A stretch of 64,000 nucleotides of DNA from Parcubacteria group bacterium (GTDB lineage Bacteria; Patescibacteriota; Patescibacteriia; UBA1558; GWA2-36-10), in assembly GCA_003104935.1 (NCBI GenBank), contig PQAE01000007.1, positions 47,221-111,220 of the forward strand, in the 5' to 3' direction. Positions 1,654 to 24,261 of this stretch are shown here, piece after piece (the first letter of the stretch is position 1; every line of letters starts with the position of its first letter). The notes below the pieces were generated by a model that was not told where the DNA came from, made no database searches, and saw only the letters and a list, made by a program, of their open reading frames with translations. The translations under genes and the position numbers were made by a program.

Positions 1654-3144
1654 ATGGGTACTAAAAATCAACCGTGCACCGATACTGGTGCACGGTTGCC
1701 CCCGCGCAAGCGGGGGCCCAGCTTAAATAATGGCACTACAATTTTTTTGGAGATTATGTTATTATCACTAATACTTTTTAACCCCACTATTATTAACCTA
1801 TTTATCCAAAAAATTCTCAATAAATTAGCCATTTTTTTAGCCGATTCTTTGCTGTGGTTAAAAAATAAGCTGGGCTCCGGACTAAGAGGGTTTGGCCGAC
1901 TGCTGGCCGGCGCCGGTAAAGTTACTATCCTGCCGATAATTTTATTTTTGTATAAAAACATTTTGCTGACCAAAATCCGGTTGAAAAATTTTGACTGGCT
2001 AAAGTTACGCTATCTTACTTTTTTCAAAAAATATCTGCCCGGCCTGATCATCATCATGATCATCACTATCGCCACCTCACATAATATCCTAGCCAAAAAC
2101 TACACCGCGGAAGAATATGTCAACCGTACTTTATTACCGGCCATGATTCAAAGTAGCGATGAAGAACGCAGTACTATCGTAGAAGAAAAAGCTCCGGTCA
2201 CGGCGACCACCGGAATTATTAATTATCTGGATGAACAAGGTAGTCTCCAGGAAATAGTTATCTCCACCCCCTTCCAATCGGATGCCGGCTCCGGTTATGG
2301 GGATGTTACGGCCGATGCCTCCAGCCTGGTCTTAAACACTCCGGAAAACTCCGCGGAAACGTCCGGTGAAGACTTTGGCGACAGCGCCCCGGTCCGTAGC
2401 GAAAATATCAGCTACACTGTCCAGGCCGGCGATGTCTTGGGATCTATTGCCGAAAAATTTGACATCAGCGTTAATACTATCCTCTGGGCCAATGGCCTAA
2501 ACTGGAGTAGCACTATCAGGCCCGGACAAAAACTAGTCATCCTGCCGGGTTCGGGTATAAACTATGAAGTCAAAAAAGGAGATGTCCTCTCCAGCGTGGC
2601 TAAAAAATATCAGGCGGACGTGGAAAAAATAATCCCTGCTAATAACCTGGCCAACGCTTCCAATATTAATGCCGGAGATCTCATCTTTATCCCCGACGGC
2701 GTCAAACCGACCGCCGTGGTTTCCTCTTATAAACCGGCTAAAACCGAAACTATTCCGTCGGTGGTTAGTAAACCAATGGATTTGGGAACCAAATTTTTAT
2801 GGCCGGCCGTCAGCACCCGTATCACCCAATATTTTAGCTGGCGCCATACCGGAGTTGATATCGGTGATAAAACCGGCAATCCGATCTATGCGGCGGAAGA
2901 CGGCAAGGTAACCCGAGCCGGCTGGTCACGGGGCTATGGCAATAACGTTATCATCAATCACGGCAACGGCGTAGAAACTCTCTATGGTCATGCCAGTAAA
3001 TTGCTGGTTGAAGAAGGAGAAACCGTGTCCCGTGGCCAGTTGATCGCCTTGATCGGCTCCACCGGCTGGTCTACCGGACCGCACTTGCACTTTGAGGTGC
3101 GAGTAAATGGCGTCCGGCAAAATGGATTGAACTATATTAAATAA
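1654..3144 (+). CDS. LysM-repeat / M23 family metallopeptidase (cell-wall hydrolase); the true start is probably internal, near 1755
   Basis: Three LysM-like segments (YTVQAGDVLGSIAEKF, YEVKKGDVLSSVAKKY, NINAGDLIFIP) and a C-terminal M23 motif (HTGVDIG...GYGNNVIINHGNG...GSTGWSTGPHLHFEV). The first ~30 codons overlap two GC hairpins and are unlikely to be translated. Confidence 0.8.
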   Translation: MGTKNQPCTDTGARLPPRKRGPSLNNGTTIFLEIMLLSLILFNPTIINLFIQKILNKLAIFLADSLLWLKNKLGSGLRGFGRLLAGAGKVTILPIILFLYKNILLTKIRLKNFDWLKLRYLTFFKKYLPGLIIIMIITIATSHNILAKNYTAEEYVNRTLLPAMIQSSDEERSTIVEEKAPVTATTGIINYLDEQGSLQEIVISTPFQSDAGSGYGDVTADASSLVLNTPENSAETSGEDFGDSAPVRSENISYTVQAGDVLGSIAEKFDISVNTILWANGLNWSSTIRPGQKLVILPGSGINYEVKKGDVLSSVAKKYQADVEKIIPANNLANASNINAGDLIFIPDGVKPTAVVSSYKPAKTETIPSVVSKPMDLGTKFLWPAVSTRITQYFSWRHTGVDIGDKTGNPIYAAEDGKVTRAGWSRGYGNNVIINHGNGVETLYGHASKLLVEEGETVSRGQLIALIGSTGWSTGPHLHFEVRVNGVRQNGLNYIK

Positions 3145-3157
3145 ATCAGGCACCGGG

Positions 3158-3183
3158 CCCGCTAATCCAGCGGGCTTTTTATA
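3158..3183. terminator. bidirectional rho-independent terminator between the M23 peptidase gene and the recombinase gene
   Basis: GCCCGCTAATCCAGCGGGC hairpin followed by TTTTTA; the A-run on the other side serves the convergent minus-strand gene. Confidence 0.5.
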
Positions 3184-4073
3184 TTACGCAAATACGAATG
3201 CGCTACACTAGTATAGCCCTGGGTGGTGCGAATACTGCCGTGACCTAATAATTTCTGGATGTAGCGAATATCCAAGCCACTTTCCAATAAATGCGTGGCA
3301 AAGCTGTGCCGCAAACTGTGGCAAGTGGCCGCTGCGTTAATACCCGCTTTGGTCATGGCAGTAGTAAAAATTTTTTGGGCGGTGCGCTGACTGATGTGCG
3401 AACGATTGCCGGCACCCGGAAAAATATATTCCGAATAATCCGCTCTTTGTTTACTATACGCTTCCCACAGATCAAGACTCTGTAGGCTTAATAAAGTATA
3501 GCGATCCTTGTGTCCTTTGGCGTCCTTAACCAGTAATAATTTTTCGGCGGGTCGCAAATGATCCGGCTTTAATTTTACTACCTCGGAGACCCGCAAGCCC
3601 GATCCGTAAAGCAAGGACAAAAGCAGACGATGTTTAATATTGATCGGAACATTTATAATTCTTATAATCTGCTCGCGCGCTAAAATTGTCGGCAAAAATT
3701 TTTCCCGCCGCGGCCGGCGGACATGAGTGAAGAGACGGCGATGCAAAAAATCATCGTAGTAAAAACGCAAGGCAGAAATAACCAAATTTAAAGAAGTGTT
3801 GGAATACCCACGAGACTTGAGATATAAAAGATAATTTTTTATATCTTGAGCGTTCACTTCTTTGGCCGATTTAGAGACAAAATCCAAAAACCTCTGATTA
3901 TGCCCCAAATAAGCCTTGACAGTCCGATGTGAAAAACCTCTAATAATGAGCTCCTGAACTAAAAAAGCCAAGGGATGAGCCCGAGGCACTAACTCAACTG
4001 TCTTTTTAGCTAAATCTGGACTATTGGTTAAGTCCGACTGACCATTATAGTCAGCAAAAAAATCGCTTTTCAT
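3162..4073 (-). CDS. tyrosine site-specific recombinase, XerC/XerD-like, encoded divergently from the cassette array (candidate array recombinase)
   Basis: Catalytic residues present: RVSEV (Arg), KDAKGHKDRYTLL (Lys hairpin), HSLRHSFATHLL (HxxR), LGHGSIRTTQGYTSV (Tyr). The Lys-to-HxxR spacing is ~55 aa, so the IntI-specific insertion appears absent. Confidence 0.8.
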   Translation of the reverse strand: MKSDFFADYNGQSDLTNSPDLAKKTVELVPRAHPLAFLVQELIIRGFSHRTVKAYLGHNQRFLDFVSKSAKEVNAQDIKNYLLYLKSRGYSNTSLNLVISALRFYYDDFLHRRLFTHVRRPRREKFLPTILAREQIIRIINVPINIKHRLLLSLLYGSGLRVSEVVKLKPDHLRPAEKLLLVKDAKGHKDRYTLLSLQSLDLWEAYSKQRADYSEYIFPGAGNRSHISQRTAQKIFTTAMTKAGINAAATCHSLRHSFATHLLESGLDIRYIQKLLGHGSIRTTQGYTSVAHSYLRNIKSPLD

Positions 4074-4098
4074 ACTTTCTTCCGATTAATAATTATTG

Positions 4099-4127
4099 TT
4101 TACATTTTGGCTAATTAGAGCTATTAT
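4099..4127 (+). promoter_or_regulatory. sigma70-like promoter TTTACA-17-TATTAT facing the cassette array (Pc-like)
   Basis: TTTACA at 4099-4104, a 17-nt spacer, then TATTAT at 4122-4127, located between the recombinase start and the first cassette. Confidence 0.35.
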
Positions 4128-4187
4128 GTCAATAGGTTCGCAAAGCAACTGTTGTACGCCATAATAAAAAGCCCTAAATAAAATACT

Positions 4188-4871
4188 ATGGAAAACCCCG
4201 AAATAATGCCCGCTAATCAATTGACAAAGGCCGAAAGAGAGCGTCAAAATATCGAACAACAATCACGTTCAAGAATTTATGAAATTTTTGATAAATTTAA
4301 TACTGCAAATGAAAGAGTGGATGATATATTTAATAACTTAAAAAATATATTGACAAAAATGCCAAACTCTGAAGAAATAAAAAGTGAATTAGAGGCTCTA
4401 AGACAAATAGAAGAAAAAGGACATTTTTGTGAAAAAGCTTTCACTATTCTTGAACAAATAATTGAATGGCGGGAAAATAATTTACAAGAATTTGAGGAAA
4501 TTAGACGAAACGATTTTAATGAGCAGGGTGATTTTATTGAATTAAATAAAATGCTTTCTTACAATATTGACGGAGATTCTATTCATATTCATGTTCCGCC
4601 CAACGTATCAACATCAAACTCCGAAAAAATAAACTTAGTATATGATGGCCTAAAAAAACTGGCTCAAATAGTAGATCAAAATCCTGCTATAAAAACAATC
4701 GTTGGCACATCGTGGATAGTAGCTGAACATCCAGCATTAATGACTAAACTACATTTTACCTTGGAAGGTAAAATAGACGAGACAAGTAGAGCGGAACATT
4801 TTCCTGCTGAAAATAGAGAAATTGCTGTAGCTACGATGTCTAGAGATGAATTAATTAAACACTATTTATAA
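4188..4871 (+). CDS. hypothetical protein (cassette 1)
   Basis: 227-aa ORF flanked by a 23-bp inverted repeat GTTGTACGCCATAATAAAAAGCC (4151-4173) / GGCTTTTTATTACGGCGCACAAC (4884-4906). Confidence 0.55.
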   Translation: MENPEIMPANQLTKAERERQNIEQQSRSRIYEIFDKFNTANERVDDIFNNLKNILTKMPNSEEIKSELEALRQIEEKGHFCEKAFTILEQIIEWRENNLQEFEEIRRNDFNEQGDFIELNKMLSYNIDGDSIHIHVPPNVSTSNSEKINLVYDGLKKLAQIVDQNPAIKTIVGTSWIVAEHPALMTKLHFTLEGKIDETSRAEHFPAENREIAVATMSRDELIKHYL

Positions 4872-4970
4872 ATACTACAGTTTGGCTTTTTATTACGGCG
4901 CACAACACCGCGTATCTGGTTCGCGGACTAAATTATATTTTTATCTTAATAATAATTAAACATAAATTAT

Positions 4971-5231
4971 ATGAAACACAACATTTATTCTAGTGGCGGA
5001 GTTCAAAACATTGAATTTACTGATAATCAATCCGACAAATCCGTAGGCGTTGTTGATCCTGGCAGTTATACATTTACTACTGAACGTGAAGAAACTGTGC
5101 AATGTCTGACTGGATCATTAGAAATAAACAACAATCAGTGTTTACCTGGTCAAAAAGTTGTAATTCCAAAAGGAGAATCTTTTACTATTTCAGCAAAAGA
5201 AGCTTCAAGTTATTTGTGTTTATATAAATAA
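4971..5231 (+). CDS. ppnP: pyrimidine/purine nucleoside phosphorylase PpnP (DUF1255 cupin)
   Basis: 86 aa; ...GVVDPGSYTFTTEREETVQCLTGSLEI...SYLCLYK matches the PpnP/YaiE pattern (GEYTF...E.M.V..G.L...SYLCRY). Confidence 0.7.
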   Translation: MKHNIYSSGGVQNIEFTDNQSDKSVGVVDPGSYTFTTEREETVQCLTGSLEINNNQCLPGQKVVIPKGESFTISAKEASSYLCLYK

Positions 5232-5376
5232 AAATATAATTTAGTCCGCTCACTGAAATTCCTCGCCCATTAATAATTAATGGCCGCTCGGAACTTCAGA
5301 TACGCTGGCCTGTTATGTGAAATAAATAAATTCTTTTCTGCTATCGCAGAAAAATTATCCGTTCAATTTTTAATTT

Positions 5377-6519
5377 ATGTATCCAGAAAAATACAATCCG
5401 ACGCAAGAAGAAATTAACAAGGCTGAAAGCATAATGACAGACGAACAACGTCAAGCTTCTGAAATTCGGGCTGAAAATTACGAACAGGTGCAACCCCCGT
5501 GGAAAGATTTTACGGAAAAGATTGATGAAAATTTTGTCCGCAAAAGACCATCCCCTGAAGTTGTTAAAGCAATGAATCAGAGCCTAGAGGAATTGGGCCA
5601 GACATTTGAGGGGTCTGGTTTGAATTGGCACCTTGATGGAGCTTTAAATATATCCTTAATGAATGGCGCCGGCGAAAACCCTGAAAAATACATCGGCGAA
5701 CACAAGGATGTTGATATCTCCGTAGAGAAAGACGAACTTGAGGCATTAGAGGCGCAATTGCTTAAAAACGGTTATGGCTTATTTTTATCTCGCACAGGAG
5801 ATAAAATAAAAAATAAAATAATGAGGCGAGTTGGACATGGGGATTTCGCCGAATCAGATACAGAACATATGCTAATTGCCGCTATAGATGAAAACGGTAA
5901 AATCCGCCAAGATAAAGCCTTAAATTTTGTAGATATCCATATTATCCAAAGAGATGAGGCTGGGAAACCCTTGGGCGTATCAGGTACGCCCATCCCTGAA
6001 AAATGGGTTCAACCGCAGCCAATGGAATTTCATAGCAAACAAATAAATGTTTCACATCCTGGAAAAGTGCTTTATTTCAAGCTCCACCAAGATAGAAATT
6101 ATGATGTTACCGACGCGGAAAAATTAATTGAAACAGGTAAAATCATTGAAGAAGATATTGATGATATAGAAAAAGTATATAGGGATGAATTTAAAGCAAA
6201 TGTTGAGCGCGGTCGAAAAATTTTTGAGGGTTATACCAATCAACTCAAACCAGAAATGAGTGCGGACGAAATTTTTAATCTTATGCAAAGCCAGCCCGAA
6301 TTTCAAAAACGAGGAGATATGGCAGTGGGGTTAAAGAAATTAGCAGAAAAAATTGCAGAATCTGAAAATAAATCAGTTGATAATATATTATCTATTGCTA
6401 TCACCTTTTTTGGAATTGAAGAAAAGTATAATCAAAAGCGTCAAATATTAAACAGGATGAAACAAAGGGTAAAGGATATTAAAGAAATGGAACGAATTTG
6501 CGGAGAATTACAAAAATAA
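5377..6519 (+). CDS. hypothetical protein (cassette), possibly a nucleotidyltransferase fold
   Basis: 380-aa ORF; GSGLNWHLDGALNISLMNG...HKDVDISV resembles a GS-x(n)-D-x-D nucleotidyltransferase motif. This is a weak call. Confidence 0.45.
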   Translation: MYPEKYNPTQEEINKAESIMTDEQRQASEIRAENYEQVQPPWKDFTEKIDENFVRKRPSPEVVKAMNQSLEELGQTFEGSGLNWHLDGALNISLMNGAGENPEKYIGEHKDVDISVEKDELEALEAQLLKNGYGLFLSRTGDKIKNKIMRRVGHGDFAESDTEHMLIAAIDENGKIRQDKALNFVDIHIIQRDEAGKPLGVSGTPIPEKWVQPQPMEFHSKQINVSHPGKVLYFKLHQDRNYDVTDAEKLIETGKIIEEDIDDIEKVYRDEFKANVERGRKIFEGYTNQLKPEMSADEIFNLMQSQPEFQKRGDMAVGLKKLAEKIAESENKSVDNILSIAITFFGIEEKYNQKRQILNRMKQRVKDIKEMERICGELQK

Positions 6520-6622
6520 AATTTGCCTGAATAATGCCTGCTATCGCTCGCGAATTTATTTACATCAGCTAACACTGCGTATCTGGTTAATAGAATAAAT
6601 GATTTATTATTAATTTAAAAAT

Positions 6623-6979
6623 ATGGAAAAACTAATAGAATTAGCGCAGTCTCCATCAAGTCCTGGGATAGAGACCGTTGATAAAATGGTTATGAAATTA
6701 CATGTACCCTGTTCTGAAAAAAGTGTAACTGTGCAAATAAATCCATTTTTACAAGATTATGAAGAAAATGCAGACCAGCCAAATGTTCAAATAAGACAAA
6801 TGCAAATAACGAGTACTACATCAGATACAAAAACTCTTACTTTTGATTTTGAAAATAACTCTACTCATAACATAGATATAGATGGAGAAAATTATCAAAT
6901 AACCCTAATGAATATTGGAAAAGAAAAAACTCAAGATGGTGAATTTCCCGCTTTTGAATTTCTAGTCAAAAAAGATTAA
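6623..6979 (+). CDS. hypothetical protein (cassette; inside palindrome 6567-7106)
   Basis: 118-aa ORF between arm AGCTAACACTGCGTATCTGGTTAATAGAATAAATGAT and its complement, which is split at 6980-6999 / 7081-7106. Confidence 0.5.
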   Translation: MEKLIELAQSPSSPGIETVDKMVMKLHVPCSEKSVTVQINPFLQDYEENADQPNVQIRQMQITSTTSDTKTLTFDFENNSTHNIDIDGENYQITLMNIGKEKTQDGEFPAFEFLVKKD

Positions 6980-7125
6980 ATCATTTATTCTATTAACCCA
7001 AATCCCTCATTCCCCTTCGACTCGTTCCGGTGGTCACTTCGTGAAAGTTTACCACTTCCACTTGCTCAGGGTCATTCGGGACTTCAGATACGCTGACCTG
7101 TTAGGAGAAATTAAGTTTCAAAAAT

Positions 7126-7491
7126 ATGAATAAAAAATTTAAAAAAATGTTATTCCAAATGTATCGAAGCTTTCCTAATTCTTTTTGGTCAGACTCTGAA
7201 TTAAAAAAAATTGCTACCAAGGAAGCTATAGATGCTCTGGTCGAGGCTCATTATCTTTTTAAGATAAAAGTAGAATTTATTGAAAAAGGAAAGATCAAGG
7301 TGGACGGAGGCACATATATGAATACTGAAAACAAGGCTCTTCATAATCCCGGTTTTAAAGATTGTTACGGACTTGGACCAAACTCAATAAACATAATATA
7401 CGCTCATAGACTACAAATTCTTACTTATTGGATTATTGCACTGACAGTATTTACAACGGTTTTAACAATTTTCACAATTTTTGAAACTTAA
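7126..7491 (+). CDS. hypothetical protein (cassette), C-terminal transmembrane segment
   Basis: 121-aa ORF; hydrophobic C-terminus ILTYWIIALTVFTTVLTIFTIF; flanked by GTTAGGAGA / TCGCCCAAC. Confidence 0.5.
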   Translation: MNKKFKKMLFQMYRSFPNSFWSDSELKKIATKEAIDALVEAHYLFKIKVEFIEKGKIKVDGGTYMNTENKALHNPGFKDCYGLGPNSINIIYAHRLQILTYWIIALTVFTTVLTIFTIFET

Positions 7492-7547
7492 CATCGCCCA
7501 ACACCGGATATCCGAGGATCGAGCTAGAATAAAATTATTAAAAAAAT

Positions 7548-8090
7548 ATGAAAAAGATAATAAAATTTTTTAAAAAGCCATCCACTTTAGTAATAATCGT
7601 ACTTCTAGTTACTATATTCGTTTTATCTTTAAAAAACTCCGATTTAAAATATTCACGTCTTTACGAAGTGGAGACTATTCCTGATATAAATCTTACAAAT
7701 TCGTTATATAATTATTCTAATGATAATTATAGTGCGGGCTCTATTAGCGGATTTGTTGCATTTTATGATAAAGACAGCCAGCCAAAGGGATTAAAACAAT
7801 ATTATATTATTGGGCCATTAAATAAATTAGATGAAAATTTAAATCGAATATTTTCTCTTGAAGAAATAGTTAAAATGGATTATTTACCTCCAACAAGTAT
7901 CAATAAGTACGAGCTCAGAGAAACCAGCGAATCATATCAAATGTTGACACTAGAAGATGAAACTGGAAATATGTTTTTTATAAACAAAAATTCAGATGAA
8001 GTTACTATGAGGGATGTAGGTGGTGATAATACTAGATTAATTACCAACCAATCAGATTATAAAAATTTTATAATTAACCTTTTAAAATAA
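7548..8090 (+). CDS. hypothetical membrane-anchored protein (cassette; inside palindrome 7496-8212)
   Basis: 180-aa ORF with an N-terminal transmembrane helix LVIIVLLVTIFVLSL. Confidence 0.5.
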   Translation: MKKIIKFFKKPSTLVIIVLLVTIFVLSLKNSDLKYSRLYEVETIPDINLTNSLYNYSNDNYSAGSISGFVAFYDKDSQPKGLKQYYIIGPLNKLDENLNRIFSLEEIVKMDYLPPTSINKYELRETSESYQMLTLEDETGNMFFINKNSDEVTMRDVGGDNTRLITNQSDYKNFIINLLK

Positions 8091-8239
8091 TTTTATTCTT
8101 TACGCTCGCTCCTCTACATCCCTTCGCCTCCTAATATGATGTTGGCTTTTAAAAGCCAAATATTATATCATATTAGTAGGCTCGGGACGTCGGATATCCT
8201 GGCCTGTTAGGCGAAATTTACTCATCTTTTTATTAAAAT

Positions 8240-8752
8240 ATGCCAATTTACTTTTCAGTTGATCGTAATAAAACCTTACAAAAAGGAACAGAGATTGCTT
8301 TAATTCAGCACAATGATATTAGTCCAGTAGAGCTACAAAATTATATAAATACGCTGTTTCCAGATGGAGTAACGAATCACGGTGAAAGATATATGTTGCA
8401 ACCATGTCCGGCAAATCAAGTTAATTCCGTAATTGAACTGATTTTTGAATATGAAAGACGGAATAATTTCATAAGCTGCCCTTCTAGAATGCAATCTGTA
8501 TTTGCCTTTGATAATCTTGAATCAGCAAAAAAATTTCGCGAAATATACGGGAACAATCAAGGCGCTATAGTAAAAATTGACGCAATCTCTGCTTTCAAAG
8601 CTGATATGAATTTATTAACTTTAAAAGATTCATTATTACAACTGTCTTATAATGCTCATAAATATTGGAAAGGTGAAGCCTCTGATAGTCCATTTTGGGA
8701 ACATCTATTGATTCCGCCAGTTAAAGTAATTGATATAATAAAAGATGAGTAA
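8240..8752 (+). CDS. hypothetical protein (cassette)
   Basis: 170-aa ORF in the array, bounded by GTTAGGCGA (8206) and CTCGCCCAAC (8755-8764). Confidence 0.5.
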   Translation: MPIYFSVDRNKTLQKGTEIALIQHNDISPVELQNYINTLFPDGVTNHGERYMLQPCPANQVNSVIELIFEYERRNNFISCPSRMQSVFAFDNLESAKKFREIYGNNQGAIVKIDAISAFKADMNLLTLKDSLLQLSYNAHKYWKGEASDSPFWEHLLIPPVKVIDIIKDE

Positions 8753-8841
8753 ACCTCGCCCAACACCGGATATCCGAGGAGCGAGCTAGAATAAAATTAT
8801 TAAATAAAAGTAATATGCTTCATAAATAATAAATACAAAAT

Positions 8842-9066
8842 ATGGATATCAAAACAACACTTTACATTATAGAAAAAAGACGTGGTAATAATTACGCAAA
8901 AATGATTGATATGGTTGCGTTCGGACTAACGAATGGTGGTACAAAAACCGCTTTAATATTGGAAGAAACAGCTCAAGCCCTAGAAAAAGCCCAAACCAAC
9001 CCAACTAAAGAAAATTGGGAAAATTTAAAAAAATCACTTATTAATAATCCGCCAAGAGATATTTAA
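8842..9066 (+). CDS. hypothetical small protein (cassette; inside palindrome 8758-9192)
   Basis: 74-aa ORF; the flanking arms are near-identical to those around 7548-8090. Confidence 0.45.
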   Translation: MDIKTTLYIIEKRRGNNYAKMIDMVAFGLTNGGTKTALILEETAQALEKAQTNPTKENWENLKKSLINNPPRDI

Positions 9067-9209
9067 TACTTTTATTCCTTGACGCTCACTCCTCTACATC
9101 CCTTCGCCTCCTAATATGATGTTGGCTTTAAAAAGCCAAATATTATATCATATTAGTAGGCTCGGGACGTCGGATATCCTGAACCGTTAGCTGAAATATT
9201 TTAAATTTA

Positions 9210-9470
9210 GTGCCACAGATCATGTTTAATTATAAAGAAAAAATTGGAGAAGATTTAAAGAAAGAGGCGCGAGCCCTCGGCCTTAGTGAAGAAGGTTGGT
9301 ACGAACATAAAGGAACAGTTCGTGAAGTATTCAGAGAAGCCGCCGTTCAGACGCGAGTAAGAGAAGCAAAAAGAGCGCGTCGAGAAAATAGATTGTGGAT
9401 CTTCGCTGTAATCTCCGCTTTAAATGCTCTTTTTAGTGCTGCGGCCGCATGGCTCGCTGTGCTAAAATAA
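9210..9470 (+). CDS. hypothetical small protein (cassette)
   Basis: 86-aa ORF flanked by a 22-bp inverted repeat GTTAGCTGAAATATTTTAAATT / AATTTAAAATACATCGCCCAAC. Confidence 0.45.
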   Translation: MPQIMFNYKEKIGEDLKKEARALGLSEEGWYEHKGTVREVFREAAVQTRVREAKRARRENRLWIFAVISALNALFSAAAAWLAVLK

Positions 9471-9588
9471 AATTTAAAATACATCGCCCAACACCGCGTA
9501 TGCGCTTAGAGAAATACCCCTATTTGACAAGGTTTTTAATCTATGATAATGTGTGTAATACAAAGTATTACAATTAATATATAAATAT

Positions 9589-9804
9589 ATGCGACAAGTA
9601 ATAAATATCTCCCTGCCTGATACTATGGCTAAAACAGTTAAAAAAGCTGTTAAAACTGGTGACTATTCCTCTACCAGCGAATTTTTTCGTCATTTAATAA
9701 GAGACTGGCAAGAAAATAAGCTAATGACTGAATTAAGTGAGAGTAGATTAGAACTAGCTAGTGGAAAAGGAATGGTTTTAAAATCCTTAAAAGATTTGCG
9801 ATAA
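9589..9804 (+). CDS. ribbon-helix-helix antitoxin (ParD/CopG-like)
   Basis: 71 aa; 10 bp upstream of a RelE/ParE toxin gene; N-terminal RHH-like segment ISLPDTMAKTVKKAV. Confidence 0.6.
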   Translation: MRQVINISLPDTMAKTVKKAVKTGDYSSTSEFFRHLIRDWQENKLMTELSESRLELASGKGMVLKSLKDLR

Positions 9805-9814
9805 TCCATTTTCT

Positions 9815-10075
9815 ATGGAAATTATTTATAGCTCAAAATTCGCTAGAGAGTATAGAAGGCTGCCAAAGGATGTGAAAGCTCTAGCTGAAACACAAGAAGC
9901 TATTTTTCGTAAAGATCCTTATGATCCGAGGCTAAAAACCCACAAGCTAAAAGGAAAGTTTGATGGGTTTTTATCTTTTTCTATTGGCTATAAATATAGG
10001 ATAATATTTGAATTCGCCAAAGGTAGAAAAACGGTATATTTTCACATAGTAGGAGATCATGATATTTATCAATAG
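9815..10075 (+). CDS. type II toxin-antitoxin system RelE/ParE family toxin
   Basis: 86 aa; YKYRIIFEF...VYFHIVGDHDIY is a typical RelE/ParE C-terminus. Confidence 0.7.
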   Translation: MEIIYSSKFAREYRRLPKDVKALAETQEAIFRKDPYDPRLKTHKLKGKFDGFLSFSIGYKYRIIFEFAKGRKTVYFHIVGDHDIYQ

Positions 10076-10205
10076 ACCGGGTATTTCTCTAAAGCAAATT
10101 ATCTTTTCGCTACGGTGGTTTGTCCCGCAAAATTATACCACCTACGCTCAAAGATAACTTCGCATACGCACATCTGTTAGCTGGAAATATTCCTTTTCAA
10201 AAATC

Positions 10206-10580
10206 ATGAAAAATAAAAGAGCTGTTATAATAATTACAATGCTGATTATTGCCGGAATCTTTGTAATCGGCGCTGATTGGGCGAATGAGACAATTCATCG
10301 TTTCTTTCACAGCTATTTTGCTGATATTATTATTCCATTTGGATTTTACTTGCTCTTAATTTTAAATGAAGAAAATTTTGTTTTTCTTAAAAAATGGCAG
10401 GTAAAAGCCGGGACAGTATTTGCTTTATGTGCCCTATCTGAAACACTGCAATACTTTGATATTTATGCATTAGCAAGGGTTTTTGATCCTATAGACTATG
10501 TAATGTATGGTCTGGGAGTAATTTTTGCTGTTTTCGTTGATAGAGTTATTTTAAAAAAAATGTTCAGTTTCTGGCATTAA
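10206..10580 (+). CDS. hypothetical membrane protein (last cassette; no closing site identified)
   Basis: 124-aa ORF with multiple hydrophobic helices; preceded by the GTTAGCTGGAAAT core at 10176. Confidence 0.5.
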   Translation: MKNKRAVIIITMLIIAGIFVIGADWANETIHRFFHSYFADIIIPFGFYLLLILNEENFVFLKKWQVKAGTVFALCALSETLQYFDIYALARVFDPIDYVMYGLGVIFAVFVDRVILKKMFSFWH

Positions 10581-10665
10581 AAAGTTGTAATACAAAAAAT
10601 TGCCAAATAATATTAAAGATATTGCATCAATTCTTTAGCCCTAAAATTTAAGAAAAAATAATTCA

Positions 10666-10700
10666 AACAAAAAATCCGGCGCTAGAGGCGCCGGATTTTT
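10666..10700. terminator. bidirectional rho-independent terminator
   Basis: AAAAAATCCGGCGCTAGAGGCGCCGGATTTTTTG, a perfect hairpin with A/T runs on both sides. Confidence 0.7.
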
Positions 10701-10702
10701 TG

Positions 10703-12307
10703 TTAATATTGACCTGGACACACAAACCCAGATTTTACCAAACTAGGATCGCTTTCATAAATCTTTAACGCGTTGGGACAATCACAATAGCTTCTAGCCG
10801 GCGCACATATATTTGGTTGGACAAAACGATTCCAGTAACAACCGGCATCGTTTGCACAAACACTATCACTAGCATAAAGCAAACATTGTTCTGTACTTTT
10901 TGGGATAGCCGCAAACCATTTTCCTCCCCCATTTTCGCAGATAGTACTAAAATTTGGTTTAATATCATTTAAGGGTACTAATAATCCTGCACCCAAAGGA
11001 TTATGTCCCGTCTGCATCTCTTGCCCATCAAGATATCCATCACCATCGGTATCCGGATTGCGAGGATCGGTGCCATAATAAGCTTCCAACTGATCGGTCA
11101 GACCGTCATTATCCGAATCTAACATACTATTTGTGGTAGTGGTTAACTCGGTCGGCATCAGGCTGGTCATAAACTGCTCCAGAGTCATAGCATCAGCCGG
11201 TGCGGCCAGTTGTTTGTCTGGGATAGACTCTATCATCAGACTAATTTCAAAACTAATGACAATATTATCGGCCGCAGACATTACTTGAAAATTATTATTT
11301 ATGAGTTCTAGGCCGTAGATAATATTATCCTTGGTTCCCAGCCACATATTTATTTCCATACCTTCCAGTGACATGACGATTTCTCCCAGAGCTTTAGGAT
11401 CTTCCTTGATTTTAGAAAAATAGGCCTGATCTAATTCCGTGCTGGCATAAGTTTGCGATAATAAATTAAAAAAATCTTGACCCTTGCCCGGAATGATGCG
11501 ATACTTTATTTTTTTTGCCTGGGCGGCGGAAATTTTTTTTATTTCGTGAGTATCGGTTATGGAAATAAGATTACTACGTCTTAATTTATTTATAAAATCT
11601 GTGTACTTTTTACTATACTGCTGAGCTAAATCACTCTGTTGTTGTCCCATGTTCGACTCAGGAATCGCTCCCCGTAATGACAACCATTTGTTCATCAAAT
11701 TATTAGGATCGCCTAAAATTCCCTGCAGTCCCGCTATACTTTTATCATCAAGACTGGTTAACTGCAAATAATAATCCGGGCCAATGGCAATATAATTTAA
11801 GCTAGCCAAAGTATTAAAATAATCGCTTTTAAAATCTACCTTAAAATCGCCTTCTGATCCTTTTTCATAGACATTAAAATTTGAACTGATTGTGTAGCTA
11901 GTATCTTTAAGATTATTAACCCCGAGTGGCAACAGAGTTCCTAGCTCACTGCCGGAACTCACCTGACTATTTCCAGCAAGGTTGAACTTAAGAGACGCCT
12001 GATATTCTCCGGTAACTTTAAAATTCTTCTCCGTCGTGCCCCAGGGCCAACTCATCTGTCGGCTCATCAGCATTGCCTGTCCCTGGGCATAATACCACCA
12101 TCCGCCTACGCCCGCTAAGACTAAAACAATCACCGCGATAATACCAATAATTAGCAATTTCTTACTGCCTCCCGTTTTTTGACTTTGCAGACGCTCGGTC
12201 AGGCCGGCCGGCGGCTGAGGCATGCCCGGATAGGCTTTAAAATTTGTCAGCTCCGGTGCGGCCGGACTAGGGTTGGTTTGATTAGCTTGGGGAGTTTGAT
12301 TTTCCAT
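10703..12307 (-). CDS. membrane-anchored secreted protein with thrombospondin type-3-like calcium-binding repeats and a Cys-rich C-terminus
   Basis: N-terminal transmembrane helix LLIIGIIAVIVLVLAGV; DSDNDGLTDQLE...DPRNPDTDGDGYLDGQE repeats; C-terminal Cys-rich region. Confidence 0.6.
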   Translation of the reverse strand: MENQTPQANQTNPSPAAPELTNFKAYPGMPQPPAGLTERLQSQKTGGSKKLLIIGIIAVIVLVLAGVGGWWYYAQGQAMLMSRQMSWPWGTTEKNFKVTGEYQASLKFNLAGNSQVSSGSELGTLLPLGVNNLKDTSYTISSNFNVYEKGSEGDFKVDFKSDYFNTLASLNYIAIGPDYYLQLTSLDDKSIAGLQGILGDPNNLMNKWLSLRGAIPESNMGQQQSDLAQQYSKKYTDFINKLRRSNLISITDTHEIKKISAAQAKKIKYRIIPGKGQDFFNLLSQTYASTELDQAYFSKIKEDPKALGEIVMSLEGMEINMWLGTKDNIIYGLELINNNFQVMSAADNIVISFEISLMIESIPDKQLAAPADAMTLEQFMTSLMPTELTTTTNSMLDSDNDGLTDQLEAYYGTDPRNPDTDGDGYLDGQEMQTGHNPLGAGLLVPLNDIKPNFSTICENGGGKWFAAIPKSTEQCLLYASDSVCANDAGCYWNRFVQPNICAPARSYCDCPNALKIYESDPSLVKSGFVCPGQY

Positions 12308-24183: not shown

Positions 24184-24261
24184 TGGTGCGCATAGATGGA
24201 TTTGAACCATCGACCCCCACATTATAAGTGTGATGCTCTAACCAAGCTGAGCTATATGCGC
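24184..24261 (-). tRNA. tRNA-Ile (anticodon UAU)
   Basis: Minus strand GCGCATA-TA-GCTC-AGCTTGGTTA-GAGC-A-TCACA-CTTATAA-TGTGG-GGGTC-GATGG-TTCAAAT-CCATC-TATGCGC-A-CCA: perfect acceptor stem, canonical T-loop, anticodon TAT. Confidence 0.8.

Follow-up and report, generated by a model that had tools for sequence, protein, structure and literature searches.

The defining feature of integrons is an integrase with an additional domain near patch III, which is held necessary for recombination of the folded attC sites of gene cassettes, and they have been reported absent from very small genomes (PMC4889954, PMC9668308, PMC5027507); the integrons described in Bacteria and Archaea all have this IntI domain (PMC9668308, PMC4889954). 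A canonical attC site is 57-141 bp long, with an unpaired spacer of 5-6 nucleotides (nt) on each arm, extrahelical bases near L'' and no need for pairing past the R box (PMC5027507). Xer-related recombinases from candidate phyla form a subgroup called 'Cand', and Xer-like groups are treated as housekeeping enzymes (Smyshlyaev et al., PMC8138268); no mention of arrays was found in what that paper says of Xer-like groups. Here we describe a locus in a 64,000-nt stretch of a metagenome-assembled genome of a Parcubacteria group bacterium (contig PQAE01000007.1, positions 47,221-111,220; the whole stretch is referred to as the window, and coordinates are counted from its first nucleotide). The locus combines the architecture, the junctions and the structure-defined sites of an integron with a plain Xer-like tyrosine recombinase, and it recurs across Patescibacteria. 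We consider it to be, more probably than not, an integron-like gene-cassette platform run by this Xer-type enzyme, a reading that rests on sequence comparison.

Layout of the Array

The plus strand between 4188 and 10580 carries 12 co-oriented open reading frames (ORFs) in 11 modules, located downstream of the tyrosine recombinase gene, which is on the minus strand (3162-4073). The platform, i.e., the divergent recombinase, a conserved promoter-like site and an attI-like site, and five cassettes occupy window positions 4135-10182. Junctions between the ORFs are of two kinds that alternate along the array. Left sites, at 4900, 6567, 7496, 8758 and 9486, consist of an R'' box (e.g., GCCCAAC) followed by ACC and a 9-nt L'' box, and right sites, whose R' boxes are at 5312, 7100, 8206, 9186 and 10176, consist of a 9-nt L' box followed by 6 nt, R' (GTTAGGC-like) and GAAAT. 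As revealed by an inverted-repeat scan of the window, the ORFs up to 10075 are each bracketed by inverted arms of 20-30 nt (outer arms I7, I15, I5, I6 and I23; inner arms I1, I3 and I20). The GC content is 33% in the array and ca. 44% in its flanks.

We scanned the 64-kb window for composite motifs describing the two kinds of sites. The left motif (16 nt) had five matches versus 0.8 expected and the right motif (19 nt) also had five; all ten are located within 4900-10180 on the plus strand, and none was found outside the array anywhere in the window. Bare heptamers were hardly enriched (0.49 versus 0.35 per kb and 1.14 versus 0.64 per kb). The signal is the composite motif and its pairing rather than the 7-mers.

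The initial annotation of this stretch had listed eleven cores (4151, 4900, 5312, 6567, 7100, 7496, 8206, 8758, 9186, 9486 and 10176), and every one of these coordinates is correct. Its count of eleven small ORFs falls one short, and its claim that every ORF lies between reverse-complementary arms holds from the ORF at 4188 to the one ending at 10075 and fails for the last ORF (10206-10580), which has no downstream arm. Some of the cores fit the integron consensus GTTRRRY/RYYYAAC strictly and others do not. The concern that the cores might be chance heptamers applies to the 7-mers taken alone and not to the composite motifs. As for the predicted cargo, ppnp and RHH pass the Pfam thresholds, while RelE and a nucleotidyltransferase stay below them.

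Recurrence of the Platform in Related Genomes

Relatives of the locus were collected as contigs with recombinase homologs at 53-87% identity. Eleven genomes provide at least 500 nt of sequence upstream of the recombinase (the window, L081, L083, L085, L087, L089, L091, L103, L105, L115 and L116). Alternating left and right sites are present in all eleven, confined to the upstream side of the recombinase gene and to the strand that diverges from it, so that the integron-like arrangement first proposed for the window, with recombinase, attI and a co-oriented array, is found in 11 out of 11. Depending on the genome, the platform is located beside genes for M23 peptidase, FtsH, TyrRS, RNR, a ComM-like protein, ThrRS or YchF, that is, in at least seven different chromosomal neighbourhoods.

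In another 11 contigs (L082, L084, L104, L106-L109, L111, L112, L114 and L117), obtained in independent assemblies, the sequence breaks off 59-218 nt ahead of the ATG of the recombinase gene. One of them, the 153-kb contig L117, ends exactly at ...GTTA of attI. Breaks of this kind at the platform are the behaviour of a population-variable or repetitive array in assemblies. A scan of a genome collection with the family alignment retrieved homologs at 29-44% identity, none with the site motifs among the matches listed, and a metagenome scan with the recombinase protein retrieved no close relatives.

In L081, the 3' ends of the M23 peptidase and recombinase genes are separated by an extra 1.2 kb (1980-3214), compared with 17 nt in the window (3145-3161). 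The insertion contains a 69-codon ORF and genes for HicB, HicA and methionine sulfoxide reductase; no array-type sites were seen in it.

Geometry and Pairing of the Folded Sites

We curated 31 cassettes from the window and the related arrays, 30 of them with both site halves. The halves conform to the plan R'' (7) - 3 nt - L'' (9) ... L' (9) - 6 or 7 nt - R' (7), which describes them better than the R''-5bp-L''(7bp) ... L'(7bp)-8bp-R' layout suggested at first. The spacer is constant over the 30 sites, 3 nt on the R''-L'' arm versus 6-7 nt on the L'-R' arm. When the sites are viewed as duplexes, the central region is 6 nt in left sites versus 9-10 nt in right sites, without exception (30/30); the alternating orientation, in which the initial annotation had seen a hallmark of Xer dif modules, is that of two halves of one folded site. 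The sites span 57-2785 nt across the family and 419-717 nt in the window, and in a minority class of cassettes GTT/AAC is replaced by GAT/ATC.

L'' and L' are fully complementary in 24 of the 30 sites although the L box comes as 17 distinct 9-mers; over these 17 variants it is 99% paired. For a more general analysis, the arms were joined as they would be in an excised circle, giving 24 distinct mini-sites. In these, 89.7% of cells were in standard pairs versus 64.1% in column shuffles, a level reached by none of 500 shuffles (kinship of the sequences inflates this contrast; see below). Pairs had changed on both sides in 23 of 30 cases, and pairing fell to 28-40% when the partner was slid by 1-3 columns. 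Such sequences point to selection acting on the pairing.

Whole junction-permuted cassettes, including those with loops of up to 2.8 kb, were folded without constraints using DNA parameters. Bottom-strand folds recovered the R box in 28 and the L box in 23 of the 30 cases, in line with the attC-type folded sites that had been expected for the window; the boxes covary as base pairs. The bottom strand was more stable than the top one in 26 of 30 (mean 4.7 kcal/mol). Positions of the R box that depart from Watson-Crick pairing show a strong bias: they are A.C when read on the top strand, and hence G.T on the bottom one, 22 times to 1, or 12 to 1 over 19 distinct box combinations. This bias speaks for a structure of the bottom DNA strand and against an mRNA structure. 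We considered the palindromes as mRNA structures and rejected this reading, since the mismatches on the sense strand are A.C.

Outer Stems and Genes within the Hairpin

The 20 nt that follow R' are complementary to the 20 nt that precede the next R'', in a cassette-specific manner: cognate arms form 13.1 Watson-Crick pairs out of 20, versus 7.3 out of 20 for non-cognate arms (p = 2e-12). Pairing stays at ca. 75-90% out to ca. 16 nt, with a conserved 2-nt bubble at +3 and +4. Judged from this complementarity, the outer stem would prolong the R-box helix in an excised circle.

The interval between L'' and L' has a bimodal length, with 12 sites at 16-156 nt and 18 at 347-2744 nt. All 18 long intervals (18 of 30 sites overall) contain an ORF of at least 50 codons, nearly always in the orientation of the array. 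The closest relative, L081, has compact sites of 57 and 74 nt, and genes in the loop are therefore frequent, as had been noted for the window, but optional.

Arms of one family, referred to as family A, are 87-95% identical across the window, L083, L089 and L091, the recombinases of which share 61-65% identity; these arms enclose five unrelated ORFs. The two family-A sites of the window, 7496-8212 and 8758-9192, had been reported as near-identical, and this is borne out (95% over 57 nt, 91% over 127 nt). Two scans of viral contigs for arm families gave zero matches. Within the family-A right arms of the window, at 8142-8159 and 9122-9139, there is an additional small hairpin of its own, TTGGCTTTTAAAAGCCAA, with a T-rich tract behind it; by its score this hairpin is terminator-like, and it turns the family-A folded site into a branched structure.

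Cassette Boundaries and Mobility

To locate cassette ends, we compared R'' boxes with both neighbouring R' boxes. Over positions 2-7 of R', complementarity to R'' extends to 5.07 out of 6 positions for the upstream box versus 3.6 out of 6 for the downstream one, and the upstream R' is the better partner in 22 cases, with 3 losses and 5 ties (p = 8e-5). In all five instances of a GAT-type R' box the next R'' is of the TATC type, and in none is the preceding one; a TATC-type R'' in no case finds a match in the R' downstream of it. Positions 2-7 of R' thus belong to the downstream unit. The sequence evidence places the cassette junction at G↓TT (or G↓AT) of R' (the arrow marks the junction), as the integron rule has it.

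Related loci show variation at the same point. L103 and L104, from two samples, are 100% identical over 4000 nt on the recombinase side and 87 nt of the platform, and lose all similarity at position 7 of the R' box in attI. L082 and L083 have unlike platforms and the same first cassette, which is ORF-less and starts with G↓ATAGAC. A 156-nt ORF-less cassette occurs twice in L083, behind different upstream L' boxes. All three comparisons are in agreement with a junction at G↓TT. Top-strand cleavage at R'' was considered as the main route, since the extra bases sit on the arm opposite to the canonical one, and rejected, since R' is the point to which the divergence of L103 from L104, the first cassette common to L082 and L083 and the duplication in L083 are each mapped.

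In L087, a 527-nt block is present twice (8193-8719 and 9477-10003; 99.8% identity), behind two different inner ORFs. It comprises a right arm, the R' box and the start of an outer ORF.

Promoter-Like and attI-Like Sites

The promoter-like site between the recombinase gene and the array (Table 1) is overlapped by a divergent promoter candidate (4132-4104). Its TTTACA-N17-TAnnnT hexamers and their spacing are kept in all related loci, directed into the array in each, and we regard the site as a putative analogue of the integron promoter Pc.

The attI-like site contains an isolated R' box, GTTGTAC (4151), at a distance of 81 nt from the start codon of the recombinase gene, with the junction between G4151 and T4152. 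The distance from the first G↓WT box to the recombinase ATG is 80-83 nt throughout the 12 loci examined. Alignment of these 12 first sites on the junction gives the consensus GGTGCACAAAT ACACTG TTAGACGAAAT, and its left arm is an L'-like box 5 nt from R', as in the short arm of the folded sites. The E. coli dif site is GGTGCGCATAA TGTATA TTATGTTAAAT (PMC3025954). The attI consensus agrees with it at 16 of 28 positions, and the best single attI sites do so at 17 of 22 arm positions; the window's own attI agrees at 13 of 22, which alone is not significant (12 random places in the window reach at least 15 of 22). One lead is that the folded cassette site may correspond to a dif-like 11-6-11 core whose central region is longer by three bases on one strand. 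No switch of GC skew was found at the array in the window, which extends only 4 kb to the left of the array. That attI might be the dif site of the terminus was considered as well; GC skew and the dif comparison neither support nor exclude it.

Upstream of more distant recombinases, at 41-42% identity (from Peribacteraceae, other Patescibacteria and a bin labelled Pseudomonadales), an attI-like ...G↓TTGTACGACAT is present at ca. 60-110 nt. The fuller form TGCGTATAGGAAGGAG↓TTGTACGACAT is found in L020 (ca. 420-450), L003 (ca. 440-470) and L008 (1-96), and the L008 contig ends at it. Judging by these sites, the system may be broader than the sampled family at 53-87% identity.

The Recombinase

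The recombinase contains PF00589. It scores 217.2 bits with NF040815, the archaeal XerA model (cut-off 220), 177 bits with the XerD model (cut-off 330) and 175 bits with the XerC model (cut-off 335). With the integron-integrase model TIGR02249 it gives 179 bits in two stretches (cut-off 265), and six true integron integrases, used as controls and taken from the distant matches, give 408-486 bits in a single stretch. Alignment to Pyrococcus XerA (PDB 4A8E) is obtained in one stretch (150 bits), and alignment to VchIntIA (PDB 2A3V) in two, with query residues 196-223 matching IntIA 170-238. The latter segment has 67 residues versus only 26 in the recombinase, ca. 41 being missing, and it follows that the IntI-specific domain is absent, as the initial annotation had stated. 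The C-terminal ...SPL(D) motif is common to the recombinase and IntI. The protein is therefore not a canonical integron integrase. No paralog of it was found within the window.

Cassettes and Their Cargo

The features of the locus are listed in Table 1. The genes enclosed in the sites of the window are Ppnp, three orphans and the RHH/RelE-like pair. Among the cargo proteins Pfam thresholds are passed by Ppnp, RHH_1 and DUF2441. PADLOC and NCBIfam searches of the cassette ORFs revealed neither defence nor named families, Ppnp excepted, and an Rfam scan found tRNAs only, with nothing in the array region. The segment that follows the last R' ends in a bidirectional terminator-like hairpin (10666-10704) and is either a truncated last cassette or the boundary of the array.

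Table 1. Features of the recombinase locus and its cassette array in the window.
Feature	Position	Strand	Description
Tyrosine recombinase	3162-4073	-	303 aa, XerA-like; C-terminal ...NIKSPLD
Promoter-like site	4099-4127	+	TTTACA-17-TATTAT, directed into array; top-ranked match
attI-like site	4135-4162	+	double-stranded, 11-6-11: GGTTCGCAAAG CAACTG TTGTACGCCAT
Cassette 1	4152-5312	+	outer ORF 4188-4871, 227 aa, orphan; folded site 4900-5318
Cassette 1, loop gene	4971-5231	+	Ppnp
Cassette 2	5313-7100	+	outer ORF 5377-6519, 380 aa; folded site 6567-7106
Cassette 2, loop ORF	6623-6979	+	118 aa
Cassette 3	7101-8206	+	outer ORF 7126-7491, 121 aa; folded site 7496-8212, arm family A
Cassette 3, loop ORF	7548-8090	+	180 aa; one homolog elsewhere, 63% identity
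Cassette 4	8207-9186	+	outer ORF 8240-8752, DUF2441; folded site 8758-9192, arm family A
Cassette 4, loop ORF	8842-9066	+	74 aa
Cassette 5	9187-10176	+	outer ORF 9210-9470, 86 aa; folded site 9486-10182
Cassette 5, loop gene	9589-9804	+	RHH antitoxin
Cassette 5, loop gene	9815-10075	+	RelE/YafQ-like toxin (sub-threshold match only)
Trailing segment	10177-10704	+	ORF 10206-10580, 124 aa, membrane-like, after last R'; without downstream R''/L'' arm

In two lineages, represented by L083 (4852-7300) and L087 (7346-9839; also in L088), the first cassette beside attI is a diversity-generating retroelement with an RVT_1 reverse transcriptase, bAvd and a target gene. It is placed within a 2.8-kb hairpin loop in one lineage and in the outer compartment in the other. 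The same outer arm pair, GTTAGCTGAAATATTCCTTTTC ... GAAAAGGAATACATCAGCYAAC, is found in L085 (4351-7257) and L087 (3191-6439) around different large genes, encoding an Eco57I-type methyltransferase and an SMC_N/ABC-type ATPase, and the L115 array contains an Eco47II restriction-modification pair. From these genes of L085, L087 and L115, the arrays seem to carry defence-type cargo.

Elsewhere in the window, a tRNA-Ile gene with a TAT anticodon is located at 24184-24261 on the minus strand. This anticodon is uncommon in bacteria, in which AUA is usually read by a modified CAT anticodon.

A Proposed Mechanism and Its Alternatives

How might an integron-like platform of this kind operate? The 5' end of a cassette (TTRRRY and ca. 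16 nt) is complementary to the sequence ending in and including R''. A single-stranded excised cassette could fold into a dumbbell, the bottom strand folding better, with a central stem made up of the outer stem, the R box, a 3x6 asymmetric loop and the L box. This stem would mimic a dif-like core in which one strand is longer by three bases. The two dumbbell loops would be equivalent places for cargo, which would explain the genes found 'inside' the site. The recombinase would synapse the folded stem with duplex attI and exchange one strand at the bottom-strand AA↓C, and the intermediate would be resolved by replication, as happens when attI recombines with attC and when XerCD integrates CTX phage (PMC5027507, PMC3089051). 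Cassettes could be expressed from the platform promoter or from promoters of their own. Beyond this we propose, tentatively and with somewhat more doubt than belief, that Patescibacteria carry a second, independent or ancestral, form of integron, in which cassettes are captured at a dif-like attI, and expressed there, by a Xer-type recombinase that has no IntI domain, via folded single strands that can have genes in both dumbbell loops.

Several points weigh against an integron-like platform run by the Xer-type enzyme. The sequences compared are related and the structure was read from the same sequences, which inflates the covariation statistics; the L-box variants are nevertheless clear compensatory changes. 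When the whole array was folded as one strand, R'' paired with the upstream R' in 4 of 5 cases, this upstream pairing closing the outer ORF and the L boxes closing the inner ORFs. Outer stems in the chromosome would thus be in competition with the canonical R''/R' hairpin, with the possible effect of locking cassettes in place; alternatively, the geometry of excision may be another one. With loops of 0.4-2.8 kb, the hairpin should not form easily from chromosomal DNA. The extra bases sit on the arm opposite to that of canonical integrons (PMC5027507), and the recombinase lacks the IntI domain that reads extrahelical bases there. The recombinase family is near-universal in Patescibacteria and may primarily be a housekeeping Xer (PMC8138268). 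An inner module common to L083 and L089 (88% over 416 nt) adjoins outer ORFs that are unrelated, and different ORFs are found within arms of one family; by such comparisons some shuffling of modules must occur away from G↓TT, which could reflect homologous recombination between conserved junctions or occasional exchange at R''.

Part of this evidence would suit a set of pdif-type Xer modules, in which each ORF is bounded by inverted double-stranded dif-like sites and ordinary double-strand recombination at R' and R'' cores shuffles or inverts modules with no folded strand. Inverted arms do bracket inner and outer ORFs alike, left sites taken as duplexes have the 6-bp central spacing of attI, the enzyme is Xer-like, several ORFs are reversed in other arrays, and, besides the module common to L083 and L089, the same arms are found with different ORFs. 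Yet the invariably longer centre of the right sites makes left and right sites non-equivalent as duplex substrates, and protein-binding sites would converge on one consensus, whereas here the 17 L-box variants and the module-specific stems covary pairwise. The strand-asymmetric A.C versus G.T spectrum, the failure of TATC-type R'' boxes to match their downstream R', and the mapping of the divergence between near-identical platforms and of the duplicated cassette to R' rather than R'' also speak against such modules, and we find them rather unlikely. The inverted repeats around each ORF, the single conserved promoter-like site upstream and the few inverted ORFs in other arrays would also be seen in a shufflon- or inverton-like switch, where the recombinase inverts ORF segments between the arms and so turns them on or off relative to that promoter. 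All 12 ORFs of the window are co-oriented, though, the spacer length differs between the arms, near-identical platforms differ in gene content and not in orientation alone, and ORF-less cassettes and compact hairpins occur; we give such a switch very little credence.

The enzyme could also be a housekeeping resolvase of chromosome dimers, with attI as its dif, next to a variable genomic island whose palindromes are RNA or DNA structures such as mRNA stems, processing sites or terminators. The genes for XerS and XerH adjoin their dif sites, attI resembles dif, and stems that bracket ORFs recall the processing stems of rRNA operons. The near-universal family is, in addition, assumed to be the Xer of Patescibacteria (PMC8138268). 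This does not account for stems that carry, in every junction, conserved R and L boxes repeating the attI half-sites at fixed spacing, nor for sense-strand A.C mismatches, which are unfavourable in mRNA, nor for identity between identical platforms that stops exactly within the R' box. The spread of the platform over at least seven chromosomal neighbourhoods and the lack of a skew switch at the array in the window count against it too, and it appears quite improbable.

If a second form of integron is indeed present, structure-specific recombination of cassettes works without the IntI insertion, Xer recombination of integrative mobile elements exploiting Xer (IMEX) and integrons are two ends of one continuum, and the smallest bacterial genomes own a dedicated platform for gene capture. 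An active system would be a natural test case for the origin of integrons from Xer systems (compare PMC4792948) and would widen the range of folded recombination sites to ones with genes inside the hairpin and 16-bp stems beyond the R box. The platform offers a mechanism for gene flux and strain-level variation in bacteria of the candidate phyla radiation (CPR), and would explain why assemblies break at this locus there. Tools that need the IntI domain and the canonical attC size would be expected to miss such arrays.

Comparison with Known Systems

In the searchable literature we found no description of a cassette array tied to Xer-like recombinases in CPR bacteria, in agreement with the suggestion of a possibly undescribed system made in the initial annotation; coverage is incomplete and an earlier description is possible. 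The nearest enzymes are those of the single-recombinase Xer systems (XerA, XerS/difSL and XerH/difH), the best sequence and structure matches being XerA. The recombinase gene of the CPR platform stands beside its presumed site, as is the case for XerS and XerH. Such systems are described as chromosome-dimer resolvases with one dif site, and the searchable papers report no cassette array or folded partner sites for them. The CPR family itself corresponds to the candidate-phyla 'Cand' group of Xer-related recombinases (PMC8138268).

With the pdif modules of Acinetobacter plasmids the locus has in common small modules, alternating Xer-type sites and the sharing of sites between neighbours (PMC7399989, PMC9771954). 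Unlike in pdif modules, the bracketing sites are not equivalent 28-bp sites (6 versus 9-10 nt in the centre) and covary as a hairpin, and the array lies in the chromosome, has a polarity and is tied to a recombinase gene and attI. In IMEX of the CTX-phi type, as proposed here, a Xer-type enzyme recombines a folded single-stranded hairpin that mimics dif, with an imperfect centre, with a double-stranded dif-like site (PMC5027507, PMC3089051), and elements stack in tandem at that site. In contrast to them, the CPR cassettes are promoter-dependent units of 0.16-3.5 kb, up to at least six per array, and not phages; they adjoin the recombinase gene, under the platform promoter; a single recombinase takes the place of XerC and XerD; and arms are common to several cassettes, as in attC families.

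The likeness to integrons, sedentary chromosomal ones such as the Vibrio superintegron among them, includes a divergent tyrosine recombinase with an adjacent attI and an outward promoter, which are canonical features (PMC5027507, PMC4889954), a co-oriented array of mostly orphan cassettes with a toxin-antitoxin pair among them, sites defined by structure (covarying R and L boxes) rather than by sequence, the G↓TT junction and the better folding of the bottom strand. Near-identical sites on unrelated cassettes and the low GC content of the array are further points in common. The locus departs from integrons in a CPR recombinase that lacks the IntI-specific domain, in GAT/ATC variants of the 'invariant' GTT/AAC triplet and in a host genome of ca. 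1 Mb. Its sites depart from canonical attC in their 3 x 6-7 nt spacer, in the extra bases on the L'-R' arm, in the 9-bp L box, in a length of 57-2785 nt, often with an ORF inside, and, going by the published description of attC, in a stem that runs ca. 16 bp past the R box into the 5' end of the cassette.

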